From Candidatus Pacearchaeota archaeon (GTDB lineage: Archaea > Nanobdellota > Nanobdellia > UBA10117 > JAFCGA01): a DNA stretch of 64,000 nt. The notes below the pieces were generated by a model. It did not search any database. It worked only from the letters and a program-made list of their open reading frames with translations, and was not told where the DNA came from. Shown piece by piece: positions 3,374-57,770 of the stretch. The position numbers were made by a program, and so were the translations under genes. Location of the stretch: contig JAFCGA010000001.1 in the NCBI GenBank assembly GCA_017608345.1, positions 33,766 to 97,765 on the forward strand, written 5' to 3'. The first letter of the stretch is position 1. Every line of letters starts with the position of its first letter.

Positions 3374-3403
3374 TTATTTGGTCCGAGTATAAGTTTTTTT
3401 GAT

Positions 3404-3567
3404 GATCACTTATTTGTATTTACTCCGTTGTGTTATTTCTGAAGCGGAGCCGAACTTGTTCGGACCAGAAGCGTTAGCTTCTGGGCTTCAGATAGAATCT
3501 TCTTTGGGGCGCGGCGGGAACTTTCTTCTTAAGAAAGGGTCCGCTTTGTATAAACTATCCAGTGATC
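3404..3567. repeat. free-standing copy of the tRNA-intron-like structured element (three-way junction plus Y/R hairpin), bounded by the inverted 7-mers GATCACT/AGTGATC
   Basis: 3438-3492 folds as TCTGAAGC[CCGAAC-TTG-TTCGG][CCAGAAGC-GTTA-GCTTCTGG]GCTTCAGA. The reverse complement of 3495-3544 (GCGGACCCTTTCTTAAGAAGAAAGTTCCCGCCGCGCCCCAAAGAAGATTC) aligns with the tRNA-Pro T-loop insert, including an identical GTTCCCGCCGC. Confidence 0.6.
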
Positions 3568-3686
3568 CTTTACTGTTCTCTCAAACCGCGCAAAGTTTAT
3601 AAAAAATTGAACGTACTATTAGCTATATTAGAGAGGTAACACAGTGAGGGTTCTGTAATTCGACGAGCCCTAGCTTAATATGAAAA

Positions 3687-4880
3687 ATGGATGATCAATC
3701 TTTCGGTACGGGATTCGAAACTATAGCTGACCCTGCAGATGATATTTTTTCTTCGCCCCCACCACAACAACAGCCACAACCGCAGCCAGTTTATCAAGCA
3801 GCTCCTATGCAGGCAGCTCCAATATCTGTTCGGGAACCTGGTAATTCTGAGTTAGAAGAAATACTTGCTAAAAAGAAAGCTAGAATTAAGGTAATCGGAG
3901 CAGGTGGCGCAGGTAATCACACTATTTCGAGAATATCTGAAGTGGGCGTGGTCGGCGCTGAAACTGTAGCAATTAACACTGACGCTCAGGATCTTTTGAG
4001 TAATGCTGCAGATAAGAAAATGCTAATCGGCAAAGAACTTACCGCAGGTCTTGGTGCAGGTTCAAATCCTCAAGTCGGTAAGGAAGCTGCTAAAGAATCT
4101 GAAAATGATATTAAAAATGTATTAAAAGAAGCACACATGGTTTTCCTAACTTGTGGGCTTGGAGGCGGAACCGGAACAGGTGCGCTTCCAGTTATCGCAG
4201 CAGTAGCTAAAAAACTAGGGATTCTGACTGTTGCCGTAGTTACACTTCCATTCACAATGGAAGGTCAGCTGAGACACGAAAACGCAATGGTCGGCCTTGA
4301 GGAACTCGAAGGACTTGTCGATACGTTAATAGTTATACCAAATGATAAGCTAATTGAATTAGCTCCAGATCTTCCCCTACATACTGCATTCAAAGTTGCG
4401 GATGAGATTCTAACCAATGCAGTTAAAGGAATTGCAGAGCTGATCACAAAGCCAGGTCTTATTAATTTAGATTTTGCAGATATTAGAGCAGTTATGTCTT
4501 CTGGCGGAATTGCAATGATTGGTGTCGGAGAGAGCGATACTGAGAATCGTGCAATTGAGTGCGTTGAGAAAGCTATTTCTAACCCGTTGCTGGATATTGA
4601 TATTTCTGGAGCAAATGGCGCGTTGATTAATGTTGCTGGCGGTCCGTCTATGACTTTAGAGGAAGCTCGACAAGTAGTAGAGACTGTGACAGGTAAGCTA
4701 GACGATTCAGCTAAAATTATCTGGGGAGCTCAGGTGCAGCCGGACTTGCAGAATACTATCCGAGTCATGCTAGTAATTGTGGGTGTTAAATCACCGCAAA
4801 TCTTCGGACCTAAGCGGACGTTCTCTCAAAAGAGAAAAACAGAACTAGCTGACGATTTAGGGATTAAATTCGTTGACTGA
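3687..4880 (+). CDS. ftsZ: cell division GTPase FtsZ with a Q/P-rich N-terminal extension
   Basis: [10 protein letters not shown] and the tubulin signature [13 protein letters not shown]. The C-terminal domain is typical of FtsZ. Confidence 0.95.
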
Positions 4881-25268: not shown

Positions 25269-26066
25269 ATGCAGAGCCCCTTTAATAAACCGCAGAATCC
25301 ATCACATCCTTCTGGCACTGGCAGAATTAAGTGGGAGGTCATTTTCCAGCTGATAAATTTCATACTATTGATAGTAATTGTTTTTTTCGTTATACCTCGG
25401 TCCCAAATATCAACGGAGGATGTGCTTACGGGAAATGCTGCTAAGGTTGAAGTGGTAGAGCCGGTTGAAGAGCCAGAACCTGAGAAAGTGGAGGAACCCG
25501 TAGTAGAAGATAAATCGGGGATGGTTTGCAATAAGCCCTATATCGTTGTAGGCAATGATTGCTGCTTAGATAAAGATGGTAATTCAATATGCGACAAGGA
25601 TGAGACTACCGCAATCTCGTTAACTGCTGAAGATGTCAAAGCTATTGCGTTAGATAGCGCTGAGGAGGAAATAGCTGCTTCTGATTCAGATTGCCATCTA
25701 GCTCATGAGGGTTTTAATCAACCAGACTTTAGTCTGCGATTCGAATTAGGCGAGGCTAAAATAGCGTCGATTAAACGAGAAGTAGATTCAGGTTGGGCAG
25801 TTTTTGAGCTAGTCATACAGCCGACTGAAGAAGGACGACTGCATTGCGATGCTGCAGAGTACTATAATAATGTTCCCATTGAAGAATTTGAAATAGATAA
25901 TATACATACTACTCGAGAAGTCGAGCCAATGGACGAAGAAGGAACGCGACTAGTCAACTATCGCGTGACTTGCTATAACGCTAAAGAGTATGAGTATAAG
26001 GACACCTGCGATACAATAAAGTCTAAATTCAAAAGCGGGACGCTACTTATAGAGTATGAAGATTAA
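25269..26066 (+). CDS. membrane-anchored Cys-rich hypothetical protein (265 aa)
   Basis: N-terminal TM segment FQLINFILLIVIVFFVI, then an acidic linker and a Cys-containing ectodomain. Its stop codon abuts the 3' end of tRNA-Thr. Confidence 0.5.
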   Translation: MQSPFNKPQNPSHPSGTGRIKWEVIFQLINFILLIVIVFFVIPRSQISTEDVLTGNAAKVEVVEPVEEPEPEKVEEPVVEDKSGMVCNKPYIVVGNDCCLDKDGNSICDKDETTAISLTAEDVKAIALDSAEEEIAASDSDCHLAHEGFNQPDFSLRFELGEAKIASIKREVDSGWAVFELVIQPTEEGRLHCDAAEYYNNVPIEEFEIDNIHTTREVEPMDEEGTRLVNYRVTCYNAKEYEYKDTCDTIKSKFKSGTLLIEYED

Positions 26067-26207
26067 GCCCCCAATGGGAGTTGAACCCATGACCTATGGT
26101 TTAATTGGAGCTCCCTTCTTTTCTTTTCCCGAGGGTTTTCTTTTCTTTGGGAAGAAAAGAAAAGGCTCTTACAAAACCATCGCTCTACCAGGCTGAGCTA
26201 TGGAGGC
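26066..26207 (-). tRNA. tRNA-Thr(UGU) with a 68-nt intron at the canonical 37/38 site (26102-26169)
   Basis: The minus strand folds as GCCTCCA TA GCTC AGCCTGGTA GAGC G ATGGT TTTGTA[intron]A ACCAT AGGTC ATGGG TTCAACT CCCAT TGGGGGC T. It is 74 nt after intron removal. Confidence 0.85.
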
Positions 26208-26701: not shown

Positions 26702-26870
26702 TGGACCGACCCGGATTCGAACCGGGGATCCTCGCGATGTAAACGCGATGTCATAACCAGATTGTCTTACTGCACGATTCATATTTTCGAGCGAAGCGAG
26801 CAAGACGCCTTTCTTTTAGCACCTTAGCTTTTCTTTCGCGAAAGAAAAGGCAGTTCTAGACCATCGGTCC
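26702..26870 (-). tRNA. tRNA-Val(UAC) with an insert of about 92 nt in the D-loop
   Basis: The minus strand folds as GGACCGA TG GTC TAGAA[insert]TCTGGTTAT GAC A TCGCG TTTACAT CGCGA GGATC CCCGG TTCGAAT CCGGG TCGGTCC A. Confidence 0.75.
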
Positions 26871-26879
26871 ACTAATTTG

Positions 26880-27068
26880 CTCACGTGGACTTTTGTTCTG
26901 TAGCGAGCTGATGAGCGAGCGTTTATTTCGAAGCTCCGTAGGAGTTGAGCAAACTGCTTCTCTTTGGGGCTACTCAACTTTGTTGAGTCCCCAAACTCGT
27001 TTGGGCTACCTTACCACCTTTCTCTTCGCAAGAGAAAGGGGGCAGCGACCAATCGGTCCACTACTATT
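26880..27068 (-). pseudogene. tRNA-Val-like 5' fragment fused to an intron-like element (leader or pseudo-tRNA)
   Basis: The minus strand starts AGTGGACCGATTGGTC, versus AGTGGACCGATGGTC for tRNA-Val. This is followed by GCTGCC-CCTTTCTCTT-GCGA-AGAGAAAGG, the hairpins CCCAAAC/GTTTGGG and ACTCAAC/GTTGAGT, then CCCCAAAGAGAAGC...CTCCTACGGAGC, which is homologous to the tRNA-Ala(GGC) D-loop insert. I could not build any anticodon or T arm. Confidence 0.35.
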
Positions 27069-31136: not shown

Positions 31137-31547
31137 TTATCTCACCTCAGTCCCGCGGGCCGGAGTTGCACCAGCAGCCTCTCGGTCTACGGCCGAGCGC
31201 TCTTCTAACTGCTCCAACCGTTTCTTATTTCCGAGCGAAGCGAGCAAGACGCCTTTCTTTTGGCATCTTAGCTTTTCTTTCGCGAAAGAAAAGGCAGATT
31301 GAGCTACCGCGGGAAGAATTAATTCACCAGTATGAGTTAGAGAAATTAGCTTACTATCGCCGAAGCTGATTAGTCTCTTATTTCTGAGCTGGCGAAGATT
31401 ATGCCAGCCAGTTGATTTAGGTAAGTTTAGAGAAGCGACAAATTGTGATGCAGTTAGTAAGTCATTATCTGCGATTGCGAATAAAAGCTTACGCTGAAGA
31501 TCAGGTATATTATTAGAAATTAATTCGCAGAGGATACGGATGATCAC
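31137..31547 (-). CDS. winged-helix (HTH) protein ORF whose C-terminal 58 codons run through tRNA-Tyr
   Basis: The first 78 aa (…LTASQFVASLNLPKSTGWHNLRQLRNKRLISFGDSKLISLTHTGEL) look like a wHTH. There is no in-frame stop before 31137. Confidence 0.4.
   Translation of the reverse strand: MIIRILCELISNNIPDLQRKLLFAIADNDLLTASQFVASLNLPKSTGWHNLRQLRNKRLISFGDSKLISLTHTGELILPAVAQSAFSFAKEKLRCQKKGVLLASLGNKKRLEQLEERSAVDREAAGATPARGTEVR
31151..31313 (-). tRNA. tRNA-Tyr(GUA) with an insert of about 87 nt in the D-loop
   Basis: The minus strand folds as CCCGCGG TA GCTC AATC[insert]GAGC G CTCGG CCGTAGA CCGAG AGGCT GCTGG TGCAACT CCGGC CCGCGGG A. The archaeal Tyr identity pair C1:G72 is present. Position 33 reads C rather than U. 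Confidence 0.75.
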
Positions 31548-34426: not shown

Positions 34427-34728
34427 TGGACCGGCCGGGATTTTCTGAAGGACAAATAGACCAAAGTATTTTGGTTTTACCAACTTCAGGGAGGTTGGTA
34501 CACCTTGGTTGGCTATATTTGAGTTGAAGGAACTTCAACTCCAGCCAGACAATGTGCTAGGGGGTCTTGCCCTTACTTTGAACCCGGGGCCTTCTACGTG
34601 CGAGGCAGACGCTCTACCGCTTCAGCAGCGTTTTCTTATTTTCCGAGCGCAAGCGAGAAAGAATTTTTCTTTTTCGCCAACGTTTTTCTTTTGTTAAAAG
34701 AAAAAGGCTGTGGCTGAGCTACCGGCCC
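34427..34728 (-). tRNA. tRNA-Ala(CGC), 302 nt, with a D-loop insert (about 90 nt) and a T-loop insert (about 136 nt)
   Basis: The minus strand folds as GGGCCGG TA GCTC AGCCA[34621-34710]GCGGTA GAGC G TCTGC CTCGCAC GTAGA AGGCC CCGGG TTCAAA[34441-34576]T CCCGG CCGGTCC A. G3:U70 is present, and the gene is 76 nt after removing the inserts. Confidence 0.75.
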
Positions 34729-54846: not shown

Positions 54847-55069
54847 GGGGCTATGGTGTAGCTAGAGCTTAAGTATTGCTTTAGTTCCTACAATGGCTAG
54901 CATCGCAGGTTTGGGACCTGCAGACCCCAGTTCAAAGCGGAGCCTTTTCTTTTGCTAAAAGAAAAGTTCCCGCCGCTCTCCAAAAGAAAAGCGTATTGCT
55001 CGCTTCGCTCGAGAATATTGCCTTTGGCAAGTTAGGAGATGTCGGCACTTGAAAATCTGGGTAGCCCCA
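54847..55069 (+). tRNA. tRNA-Pro(UGG) with a D-loop insert (about 31 nt) and a T-loop insert (about 119 nt)
   Basis: Folds as GGGGCTA TG GTGT AGC[54863-54893]TGGCTA GCAT C GCAGG TTTGGGA CCTGC AGAC CCCAG TTCAAA[54937-55055]T CTGGG TAGCCCC A. It is 73 nt after removing the inserts. Confidence 0.75.
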
Positions 55070-55074
55070 TTGAT

Positions 55075-55213
55075 GCGCCCGTGGTCTAGTGGTACGCGCT
55101 AAAAATCCGTGCACTAAATGACTCAAGCTTGCCAAGCTTGCAACCCGAGTTCAAATTCGGACTGGTTCGAATTACTGCGAGAACTTGTTCGATCGGAAAT
55201 CTCGGCGGGCGCA
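55075..55213 (+). tRNA. tRNA-Gly(GCC) with a D-loop insert (about 24 nt) and a T-loop insert (about 44 nt)
   Basis: Folds as GCGCCCG TG GTCT AGTGGTA[55095-55118]TGAC T CAAGC TTGCCAA GCTTG CAAC CCGAG TTCAAAT[insert]CTCGG CGGGCGC A. It is 71 nt after removing the inserts and starts 5 nt after tRNA-Pro. Confidence 0.75.
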
Positions 55214-55767: not shown

Positions 55768-55974
55768 GGGCCGTTAGCTCAGAGCCTTTTTCTTTCTTTC
55801 CCAAAGAAAGAAAAACCCTCGGGAAAAAGAAAGAACGGGAACGCGAGCAATCTGGTCATATTCCGTCAGGAATATTCCTGGACGGAGTACTGGAAAGAGC
55901 ACTTGGCTCTTAACCAAGGTGTCGAGGGTTCAAAGCTGCCAAATATTAAGCAGTAGAAAATCCCTTACGGCCCG
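55768..55974 (+). tRNA. tRNA-Lys(CUU) with a D-loop insert (about 105 nt) and a T-loop insert (26 nt)
   Basis: Folds as GGGCCGT TA GCTC AG[about 55783-55887]..CTGGAAA GAGC A CTTGG CTCTTAA CCAAG GTGTC GAGGG TTCAAA[55935-55960]T CCCTT ACGGCCC G. TTATAAAT lies 25-32 nt upstream. Confidence 0.8.
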
Positions 55975-57241: not shown

Positions 57242-57587
57242 GGGCCGGTAGTTCAGCCAGCGGATCCCTTGCTCTCCAGACCGGAACAAGTTCCGGTTGG
57301 CCACGCGGAATTTCATTCCGCTTGGTGCAAAGAGAAAGGTCTACGCATCACCCCAAAGAGAAGCGTATTCCTTCGCTCCTTCGGAGCTCAAAAATAAAGA
57401 GATTTGCCTGAAACGGTAGAACGCTACATTGGCAGAGCCTTTTTCTCTTTCCAGAAAGAGAAAAACGTTCGCGAAAAAGAGAAAGCGAACATGGGTTTCA
57501 GACTTGTAGAGGCCCCGAGTTCAAATAGCCTTTCTTTCCTGAATGAAAGAACGAATTTCAGAGGCTAGGAAAATCTCGGCCGGTCCA
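57242..57587 (+). tRNA. tRNA-Ala(GGC), 346 nt, with three inserts: D-loop (about 153 nt), canonical 37/38 (69 nt) and T-loop (about 48 nt)
   Basis: Folds as GGGCCGG TA GTTC AGCC..[insert]..GGTA GAAC G CTACA TTGGCA[57435-57503]T TGTAG AGGCC CCGAG TTCAAA[about 57526-57573]T CTCGG CCGGTCC A. G3:U70 is present, and the gene is 76 nt after removing the inserts. Confidence 0.75.
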
Positions 57588-57683: not shown

Positions 57684-57769
57684 GCCGAGATAGCTCAGCT
57701 GGTAGAGCGCCAGTTTAATAGGCGAATCTCATAAGCTGGAGGTCGGGAGTTCGAGCCTCCCTCTCGGCA
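57684..57769 (+). tRNA. tRNA-Met/Ile2(CAU), elongator type, with a 13-nt insert at the 31/32 boundary
   Basis: Folds as GCCGAGA TA GCTC AGCTGGTA GAGC G CCAGT[TTAATAGGCGAAT]CTCATAA GCTGG AGGTC GGGAG TTCGAGC CTCCC TCTCGGC A. Confidence 0.8.
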
Positions 57770-57770
57770 C

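Follow-up and report, generated by a model that had tools for sequence, protein, structure and literature searches.

A three-tract element shared by inserts in the tRNA-Thr and tRNA-Lys genes of a Pacearchaeota archaeon, and the probable tRNA intron family to which they belong

In this article, I will discuss a short element that interrupts transfer RNA genes in 64,000 nucleotides (nt) of DNA from Candidatus Pacearchaeota archaeon (GenBank assembly GCA_017608345.1, contig JAFCGA010000001.1, positions 33,766 to 97,765 of the forward strand; this whole stretch is called the window, and coordinates refer to it). The insert in the anticodon loop of the tRNA-Thr gene and the insert in the D-loop of the tRNA-Lys gene are homologous, a relationship that is confirmed against shuffled controls and is not a resemblance of composition, and the explanation that best covers the whole of the evidence, which I consider probable, is that they are two diverged paralogues in a family of short archaeal tRNA introns carrying no open reading frame (ORF). 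That one intron family has spread among tRNA genes and among positions within them is well supported by the sequences, and the route by which it spread is something that I infer. The copies share a pyrimidine tract (Y), a purine tract (R) exactly complementary to it, and a second purine tract (R') that is a mirror image of R.

The tRNA-Thr gene occupies 26066..26207 on the minus strand, where Rfam recognizes a tRNA at 53.5 bits with an insertion of about 70 nt in the anticodon loop, and once the insert is removed in silico ARAGORN reads the spliced sequence as tRNA-Thr(UGU). A strict search for the bulge-helix-bulge (BHB) motif delimits a 68-nt intron at the canonical position 37/38 (26102..26169, minus strand). 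Its 5' splice site follows UGGUUUUGUA and its 3' splice site precedes AACCAU; helix h is AUGGU/ACCAU (5 bp), the central helix UUG/CAA (3 of 4 pairs) and helix h' GAGC/GCUC (4 bp), and both bulges read UA/A, the stroke marking the cut. Inside the intron, and on the same strand, follow the Y tract TTTTCTTTTCTT (26152..26163), the loop CCC (26149-26151), the R tract AAAGAAAAGAAAA (26136..26148), which as the exact complement of Y forms with it a perfect 12-bp hairpin, the spacer CCCTCGGG (26128-26135) and the R' tract AAAAGAAAAGAA (26116..26127), a mirror of R in which the run of As before the first G (4) equals the run of As after the last G of R (4).

The tRNA-Lys(CUU) gene (55768..55974, plus strand, 207 nt) carries two inserts, and neither ARAGORN nor Rfam detects it in unspliced form; with 55783..55889 and 55935..55960 removed, a cloverleaf remains that ARAGORN calls tRNA-Lys(CUU). 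The D-loop insert (55783..55889, about 107 nt, its ends uncertain by about 2 nt) contains Y at 55787-55799, the loop CCC, R at 55803-55815, the spacer CCCTCGGG once more and R' at 55824-55835, followed by an unrelated hairpin, and the T-loop insert (55935..55960, 26 nt), also delimited by in-silico splicing, is without the element. The original prediction, made from the sequence alone, had quoted one string from each insert and had assigned 26102-26169 to the anticodon loop of tRNA-Thr and the second string to the D-loop of tRNA-Lys; both strings are present where it had them, the first interval is exactly the 37/38 intron, and in-silico splicing bears out the D-loop placement.

Local alignment of the two inserts extends over 58 columns with 50 identities (86%), six mismatches and two one-base gaps, for a score of 72. 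It had been proposed that such an alignment be judged against shuffled controls, low-complexity purine and pyrimidine tracts included, and the similarity exceeds them: dinucleotide shuffles score 21.9 +/- 4.1 (z=12.3; the best of 2000 reached 43), and shuffles preserving the purine/pyrimidine blocks score 42.0 +/- 7.7 (z=3.9), the observed score being reached by 0.04% of them. When only the tracts are shuffled the score barely drops (z=0.9), and when only the flanks and loops are shuffled it falls (z=4.4). I therefore base the homology on GAGCC, CCC, CCCTCGGG and GGGA, about 20 positions outside the tracts that are identical in the Thr and Lys inserts and survive the block-preserving null, since the tracts add nothing to it. 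All six mismatches are a single C/G position moved by one base, repeated in Y, R and R'. Part of the similarity quoted at the outset is thus compositional, and the tracts alone are no evidence of homology: the earlier statement that the first 65 nt or so of the Lys insert were alike, with most bases the same, holds for the loops and flanks and has to be narrowed otherwise, as only about 58 nt match, the tracts are uninformative, and the remaining 50 nt or so of the Lys insert (a CCGTC..GGACGG hairpin) have no counterpart in Thr.

These same numbers bear on the idea that unrelated low-complexity purine/pyrimidine hairpins have come to look alike by chance or convergence, which I regard as very improbable. 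The idea can draw on the near indifference of the score to tract shuffling and on unrelated bacterial repeats that show the same architecture, but it is opposed by the 20 or so identical positions outside the tracts, in a family whose other members have other loops (CCAG, CGTTCGCG, CGCG...), by both the flank-and-loop shuffle and the block-preserving null, and by the architecture itself, since a degenerate pattern for it returns 9 matches (7 distinct copies) in the window where 0.00 are expected by chance.

The architecture scan found nine Y-R-R' copies in the window, eight of them in seven of the nine tRNA genes and one outside any recognizable tRNA. Those in tRNA genes occupy four kinds of site (37/38, D-loop, T-loop and 5'-proximal) and are all co-oriented with the host gene, and every Y:R hairpin of at least 7 bp in the window falls in these loci, none behind a protein gene. 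Besides the 37/38 copy of tRNA-Thr(UGU) and the D-loop copy of tRNA-Lys(CUU), there is a second 37/38 intron in tRNA-Ala(GGC) (57435..57503, plus strand, 69 nt, with a perfect hBHBh' motif; Y 57440-57450, R 57455-57465, R' 57474-57484), whose gene (57242-57587) has three inserts and becomes tRNA-Ala(ggc) after splicing. D-loop inserts on the minus strand hold copies in tRNA-Ala(CGC) (insert 34619..34710, Y-R-R' 34664-34705, gene 34427-34728), tRNA-Tyr(GUA) (insert 31211..31298, Y-R-R' 31252-31292, gene 31151-31313) and tRNA-Val(UAC) (insert 26762..26855, Y-R-R' 26808-26848, gene 26702-27059), and the Val gene has in addition a 5'-proximal insert with an expanded Y-R-...-R' copy (26957..27046, minus strand) between two copies of GTGGACCGAT(T)GGTC. 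A T-loop insert of tRNA-Pro(UGG) on the plus strand (54937..55055, Y-R-R' 54945-54991, gene 54847-55069) completes the tRNA set, and the free-standing copy (3498..3544, minus strand) belongs to the subfamily of the Pro copy. Over 79 nt the D-loop copies of Val and Tyr share 94% identity, and the two Ala copies share 86%. A degenerate tenth copy can be seen in the D-loop insert of tRNA-Ala(GGC).

Each of the nine tRNA genes in the window is interrupted, by as many as three inserts, gene length reaching 358 nt, and removing the inserts in silico gives nine cloverleaves, namely Thr(tgt), Lys(ctt), Ala(ggc), Ala(cgc), Pro(tgg), Gly(gcc), Tyr(gta), Val(tac) and Met(cat). Because the BHB motifs and the in-silico splicing point the same way, excision is presumably the work of the splicing endonuclease. 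The BHB motif scores (central/h/h') are 4/5/5 for Ala(GGC), 3/5/6 for the Val 5' insert and 3/4/3 for Tyr; for the Ala(CGC) D-loop insert the strict search gave no convincing motif, spurious Y/R' pairings dominating as they do in Lys. Rfam assigns the inserts, which range from 26 to 190 nt, to no group I or group II intron family at gathering score or at E-values up to 5, and among the window ORFs of at least 150 aa that were scanned none is a gene for the splicing endonuclease EndA.

Now considering how such a family could come to occupy so many sites, the Thr and Lys inserts lie at different positions of different tRNAs, which excludes descent from a single ancestral intron position. In Thermoproteales, similar introns in different tRNAs and at different positions have been read as the result of intron transposition (Fujishima et al., 2010, as summarized in PMC4033280). 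As far as that summary describes them, the Thermoproteales introns resemble those of the window in having similar sequences across tRNA species, non-canonical positions, up to three introns per gene, no ORF and removal by the splicing endonuclease, whereas the host here has about 40% GC and a DPANN-like appearance, the inserts are long (68-190 nt), and they contain a three-tract mirror module that also occurs outside introns and in distant archaea. The window has what marks a transposed tRNA intron family, similarity between introns of different tRNAs and presence or absence in comparison with one relative. This relative, a marine archaeon represented by contigs L039/L040, has a MetRS with 62% and an NDP-sugar pyrophosphorylase with 70% identity to the proteins of the window; over the 20 kb or so that were compared, its tRNA-Thr(UGU) is intron-less, its tRNA-Lys(CUU) has a T-loop insert only and none in the D-loop, full Y-R-R' elements stand 6-8 nt past the 3' ends of tRNA-Val, tRNA-Lys and tRNA-Pro, and miniature versions lie within the introns of tRNA-Met and tRNA-Gly.

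The original prediction had argued for transposition rather than vertical descent. Its first half has gained from the homology at differing positions, the nine-copy family, the 94% identity of the Val and Tyr copies and the intron-less Thr gene of the relative, but transposition as the mechanism does not follow. By inspection, the two ends of the Thr insert, and likewise those of the Ala(GGC) insert, have the 4-5 bp BHB helix in common and nothing more, with no duplication beside them, and neither target-site duplications nor long terminal inverted repeats were seen at the Thr or Ala insert ends, the exception in the family being a 13-14 nt duplication that flanks the Val 5' insert; a scan of the window ORFs of 150 aa or more brought up no transposase, reverse transcriptase or homing endonuclease. 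The data would suit recombination or duplication equally well. The course of events that I would propose begins with an archaeon in which nearly every tRNA gene is interrupted and whose inserts would be cut from the precursor tRNA by the splicing endonuclease; the introns may have arisen through the capture or insertion of a Y-R-R' module into segments that a broad-specificity splicing machinery could remove, and the family would have moved between tRNA genes and positions, recently in the case of Val and Tyr and longer ago in that of Thr and Lys.

The anatomy of the element is strict. Read on the sense strand of the tRNA, a short opening segment of 4-5 nt (GAGCC, CAGCC or CTGCC), lying 1-6 nt after the 5' splice site and closing the BHB intron helix, is followed by a Y tract of 8-13 Ts and Cs, a loop of 3-4 nt, R as the exact complement of Y, a spacer of 7-15 nt and an R' tract of As and Gs; in the Thr and Ala(GGC) introns the inner helix of the BHB motif is made of the first bases of the element and the 3' end of the intron. 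R' is a mirror of R and not a second copy of it, a layout that is kept in all nine window copies. There are eight different tract patterns in the window, and in these the run of Us at the 5' end of Y, the run of As at the 3' end of R and the run of As at the 5' end of R' are of the same length (3, 4 or 5), the last not being equal to the run of As at the 5' end of R. Such co-variation of Y, R and R' indicates a fold under selection, beyond mere copying. Among 105 elements from the window and the fetched loci, the pair position just beyond Y:R is C.C in 25 and C.U in 20, and past this mismatch an outer stem X:X' of at least 3 bp forms in 28 of the 105, with 20 covarying sequences, against 0-2 in slid controls. 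A mini-hairpin closing the turn from R to R' was considered and set aside, since it appears in 15 of 105 elements against 7.5 +/- 2.5 in shuffles, a weak excess, and X:X' uses the same bases and is far better supported. The 25 interior mismatches of Y:R include one U.G and two C.A, too few for a G.U versus C.A test to decide on which strand the fold is selected.

This Y-R-R' core appears, from its sequence, to be arranged like a class II (purine-motif) intrastrand triplex motif, in which a pyrimidine stem, a purine stem and a mirror purine stem follow one another on one strand, the complement being of the pyrimidine-motif class (PMC4666352). Best known among natural repeats of this kind are the BoxC/PIT/TMECO elements of Enterobacteria, which are G/C-rich, form triplexes in vitro, have no known function and are linked to genome rearrangement (Holder et al., 2015, PMC4666352). 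The order of pyrimidine stem, loop, purine stem, loop and mirror purine stem is common to both, as is the multi-copy occurrence, while TMECO is G/C-rich (CCCTCNCCC..), intergenic and bacterial, prefers neither orientation and forms its second loop from 3 nt, and the element discussed here is A/T-rich and archaeal, is co-oriented with transcription, lies in spliced-out parts of tRNA and rRNA precursors, has a second loop of 7-15 nt and sets off its outer stem by a C.C or C.U mismatch. Of the limits quoted in PMC4666352, those of ITxF (stems of 6-15 nt with at most one mismatch, loops of 1-6 nt) accommodate the stems (8-13 nt) and first loop (3-4 nt) of the window copies and are exceeded by the second loop (7-15 nt); the limit of Hoyne et al. 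(2000), with loops of 0-10 nt, takes in the second loop of Thr, Lys and both Ala copies (8 nt) and leaves out those of Val, Tyr and Pro (11-15 nt).

Other known systems resemble it in part. Triple-helical elements at RNA 3' ends, such as the element for nuclear expression (ENE) with its A-rich tract, or MALAT1, are built from U.A-U triples, that is, from two U-rich strands and one A-rich strand; like them, the element here encodes three tracts beside a tRNA-type processing site with the A-rich tract last, but its sense RNA supplies one U-rich and two A-rich strands, and the U.A-U type could come only from the antisense strand. Transcription-dependent triplexes at purine mirror repeats were reportedly described by Grabczyk and Fishman in 1995. 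A homopurine mirror repeat on the non-template strand, with an orientation-dependent effect on RNA polymerase to be expected, is shared with H-DNA and with the transcription-dependent triplexes of GAA.TTC repeats (PMC4538819), although those structures need only a duplex mirror repeat, and here the strand also carries a complementary Y, its tracts measure only 8-13 nt and an effect on transcription is a prediction. As in REP and MITE repeats, finally, the copies are short, ORF-less, multi-copy and hairpin-forming and often lie just past stop codons, but terminal inverted repeats and target duplications are lacking at Thr and Ala, a cognate transposase was not found among the ORFs scanned in the window, and copies inside genes would be tolerated only because they are spliced out. 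A search of the literature, in which subscription papers were poorly covered, turned up nothing that links transposed tRNA introns with triplex motifs and nothing on this motif in tRNA introns.

To my knowledge, mirror symmetry of homopurine tracts is demanded only by triple helices or parallel duplexes. In copies outside the discovery set that were not picked by the scan pattern, asymmetric hairpins with a near-perfect third tract fit the mirror better in 18 cases and the direct repeat better in 6, with 4 ties, and a run-length test on 23 favors the mirror in 10 and the direct repeat in 3 (permutation p=0.024). The decisive tracts are those in which three Gs stand at uneven distances, and all of these are mirrors, as in locus L069, where AGAAAGAAAAGAA is followed by AAGAAAAGAAAGA (13/13 as a mirror) and AGAAAAGGAAA by AAAGGAAAAGA (11/11), and in L039 (12/12).

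Folding at the RNA level offers a different account. RNAfold finds no consistent Watson-Crick partner for R' across copies, pairing it with Y in Thr and Lys, leaving it in a hairpin loop in Ala(GGC) and pairing it partly elsewhere in Ala(CGC). The minimum free energy (MFE) structures of pre-tRNA-Thr and of the Lys insert use the Y:R' helix (-52.9 vs -46.5 kcal/mol with Y:R forced; z=-3.6), as calculated with nearest-neighbor parameters, a model to which base triples are foreign, and the BHB frame of Thr is kept with either inner helix. One could propose on these grounds that the element is purely a device of RNA secondary structure, a rigid stem that presents the splice sites and in which Y pairs either with R (locally) or with R' (at long range, stacked on the BHB helix), the mirror symmetry being a by-product of near-symmetric tracts. 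I consider this unlikely. It would account for Y:R' in the MFE structures of Thr and Lys, which retain the BHB frame, and for the covariation of the outer stem (20 sequences, 28 of 105 elements); but in the asymmetric copies R' is the mirror and not the complement of Y, which weakens Y:R' pairing, so that about 10 of 11 positions pair in Ala(GGC) and only about 8 of 12-13 in the three-G cases of L069 and L039, a direct repeat would pair better than a mirror, R' changes its partner from copy to copy, and G.U wobble is nearly absent from Y:R, which is unusual for selection on RNA alone.

Beyond the window, a scan of metagenomes for the architecture returned at least 120 loci, and 77 of the 121 matches listed also show the complementarity and the mirror. 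Flank reading and Rfam associate about 20 of some 60 distinct loci among these matches with tRNA or rRNA: the element lies in anticodon-loop introns (L068, L085, L153, L158), T-loop introns (L089, L116, L129, L151, L164, L165, L183), a D-loop intron (L166) and tRNA trailers (L099, after each tRNA of a cluster, L125 and L162), and within an archaeal 23S rRNA gene as a large-subunit (LSU) rRNA intron (L139, 1595 bits). The hosts are distant, with 29-35% identity to the window in L1, L10 and aIF5B. Further copies stand 1-7 nt past stop codons, for example those of uS2, archease and uL15 genes, and among the matches listed a same-strand ORF ends within 60 nt upstream of 19 copies, against 1 with a convergent ORF only; context was read from stop-to-stop frames, which are noisy, and only the class in which an ORF ends just upstream is used.

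This arrangement makes it possible, if doubtful, that the element is an orientation-specific punctuation mark of transcription, causing pausing or termination, and that the intron copies are captured or leaky versions of it. When RNA polymerase has reached R', the purine-rich non-template strand would fold back on the R duplex once this had re-annealed, giving a purine-motif triplex, and the nascent Y:R hairpin would strip the RNA off the template. The 19 copies after a same-strand ORF end, often 1-7 nt before Y, fit such a role, as do the copies directly behind tRNA genes (L039, L099, L125, L162) and behind ribosomal protein genes; mirror purine tracts on the non-template strand are in the orientation studied for transcription blockage by H-DNA (PMC4538819), and a DNA purine-motif triplex is physically established where its RNA counterpart is not. 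Yet at least 25 copies lie within tRNA or rRNA genes that need read-through, no window copy stands behind a protein gene, bacterial PIT/BoxC elements showed no terminator activity (PMC4666352), and in L039 a copy separates tRNA-Lys from a tRNA-Met not preceded by an A/T-rich promoter, so that the two are probably co-transcribed.

Returning to a third strand that binds, it could form a triplex on the sense DNA strand displaced during transcription, or it could make a tertiary contact at the RNA level, and I lean slightly towards a role at the DNA level, on a sense strand displaced in transcription or replication, because RNA purine-motif triplexes are reportedly unstable, G.U is nearly absent from Y:R and co-orientation with transcription is strict. 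The widest form of this thought, which I put forward tentatively and hold to be possible rather than likely, is that many archaea encode a self-contained triple-helix module (Y, R, mirror R', outer stem and C.C hinge) that folds on the sense DNA or on the transcript, acts on transcription or RNA processing in one orientation only, and is the seed of new BHB introns in tRNA and rRNA.

Several points weigh against the picture drawn so far, of a spreading intron family with a triplex-type core. Mobility machinery and an insertion signature were looked for and not found, and the spread is argued from similarity and from presence or absence in a single relative; the excision of the Lys D-loop insert is concluded from in-silico splicing only, because the strict BHB search found no motif at boundaries that restore the D-loop. 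RNAfold favors the Y:R' helix in Thr and Lys by about 6 kcal/mol, and the R' tract of Thr ends only 4 nt from the 3' strand of the BHB helix, a gap because of which a full third-strand fold would exclude the splicing-competent fold, so that the Thr copy looks truncated. Tracts with one or two G/C positions also fit a register-shifted Y:R' helix and do not discriminate, the independent statistics in favor of the mirror are modest (p about 0.02), and the pattern by which the metagenome set was selected partly presupposes the architecture. RNA strands reportedly enter into pyrimidine-motif triplexes but not into purine-motif ones (PMC4666352), and runs of T4-T5 within the introns would be expected to favor archaeal termination, which speaks against a terminator-like ancestry.

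A second box follows R' in four copies, reading ..TTGCTCGCTTCGCTCG(A/G)AAATA(A/T)G.. in Val (26770-26800), Tyr (31215-31250), Ala(CGC) (34625-34660) and Pro (54992-55020), and related GGCTCGCTGTCGCTCGCA strings occur after R' in the unrelated contigs L087 and L179. If Y were a terminator and this A/T-rich box a promoter, the interrupted genes could be cis-split tRNA genes whose pieces are transcribed separately and joined in trans as in Nanoarchaeum equitans; T-rich tracts after each 5' piece, the conserved ..CTCG(A/G)AAATA(A/T)G.. box in four copies and the DPANN-like appearance of the host lend themselves to this, but the geometry does not fit and I reject it as scarcely credible. The box stands 0-4 nt ahead of the 3' strand in the helix that closes the intron, and not at promoter distance from the next exon, so a start about 25 nt downstream would fall in the exon and lose the BHB partner; it is without the TTATAAA-type TATA that is present upstream of real gene starts, and Thr has no such box at all.

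Among other copies outside the window, L139 has at 3802-3990 a sense Y-R-R' element and, about 25 nt on, a second element in inverted layout (Y'-Y''-R''), which makes a head-to-head pair in the rRNA intron; L179 holds three copies with about 70 nt in common; and a single tRNA-associated copy, in L149 at about 6260, is reversed and lies antisense inside or beside the 3' half of a tRNA gene on the opposite strand. A multi-copy repeat of lake-metagenome contigs, GTAACCAAA CTTTTCTTT AAGAAAGAAAAG TTTGATC AAAAGAAA TAAGAGGAA, has the same three-tract layout and no tRNA association and is found in both orientations (L078, L090, L106, L109, L123, L124, L130, L142, L143, L152, L156, L163, L172, L181); its host is probably bacterial, because one copy follows a gene for an RseP-type M50 protease. 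A scan of viral contigs with the general pattern gave 23 matches, all of them chance low-complexity sequence.

As for the window itself, it is archaeal in its gene content (TFB, S6e, L10P, aRF1, aIF5B, NurA and FtsZ), and in a scan of genome contigs its ValRS has best matches of 45% identity to metagenome-assembled genomes of DPANN and Thermoplasmata. The 5' end of tRNA-Val is duplicated, the GTGGACCGAT(T)GGTC copies lying about 185 nt apart with a TATA-like box upstream of the first, and from the strict BHB search an intron of 187 nt is predicted to follow G10 and to end, on its 3' side, with the second copy; it looks as though the duplication arose when the insert arrived. Around the free-standing copy (window 3400-3600, minus strand), the spacer reads TTCCCGCCGC.., helices AAGCGGA/TCCGCTT and GATCACT/AGTGATC enclose the element, and a TATA-like TTTTTATAAAC precedes GCGCGG by about 25 nt; the locus may be a small RNA gene in its own right or the remains of a tRNA gene. 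The genes for tRNA-Pro(UGG) and tRNA-Gly(GCC) (54847-55213, plus strand) are 5 nt apart and have a D-loop and a T-loop insert each, those of Gly(GCC) being without the Y-R-R' element. The tRNA-Tyr(GUA) candidate (31151-31313, minus strand) has C33 in place of U33 and an unusual T-loop, UGCAACU, and abuts without a gap on upstream sequence of protein-coding appearance. The 'tRNA-Stop (tta)' that ARAGORN reports at 57684-57770 (plus strand) is an artefact: with 13 nt (AATAGGCGAATCT) removed after U33 the sequence is a normal tRNA-Met(CAU), and what looked like a suppressor tRNA is a tRNA-Met with a short non-canonical intron near 33/34. On the unspliced window ARAGORN finds one tRNA and Rfam three, and since these standard finders miss 6 of the 9 genes, genomes of this kind have badly under-called tRNA complements.

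For the gain of introns at odd positions of archaeal tRNA genes, the one documented pattern is that of the similar introns of Thermoproteales, with no recognizable structure or source. The intron kind and the repeat kind are each already known, as transposed archaeal introns and as intrastrand triplex repeats; what is new is that the shared element appears to be a co-varying, triplex-type three-tract module, found widely in archaea both behind genes and in the introns of tRNA and rRNA; apart from it, the layout is known only from triplex-forming repeats of bacteria, which have no known function. The co-varying core of the family is sharply defined and searchable, and the occurrence of this core both in spliced-out segments and free-standing behind genes makes it a possible source of new introns. 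If the third strand does bind, it would be a rare natural purine-motif triplex under evident selection, and if the self-contained triple-helix module is real, it would be a natural counterpart of the synthetic polypurine reverse-Hoogsteen clamps and would provide archaea with a concrete source of intron gain.

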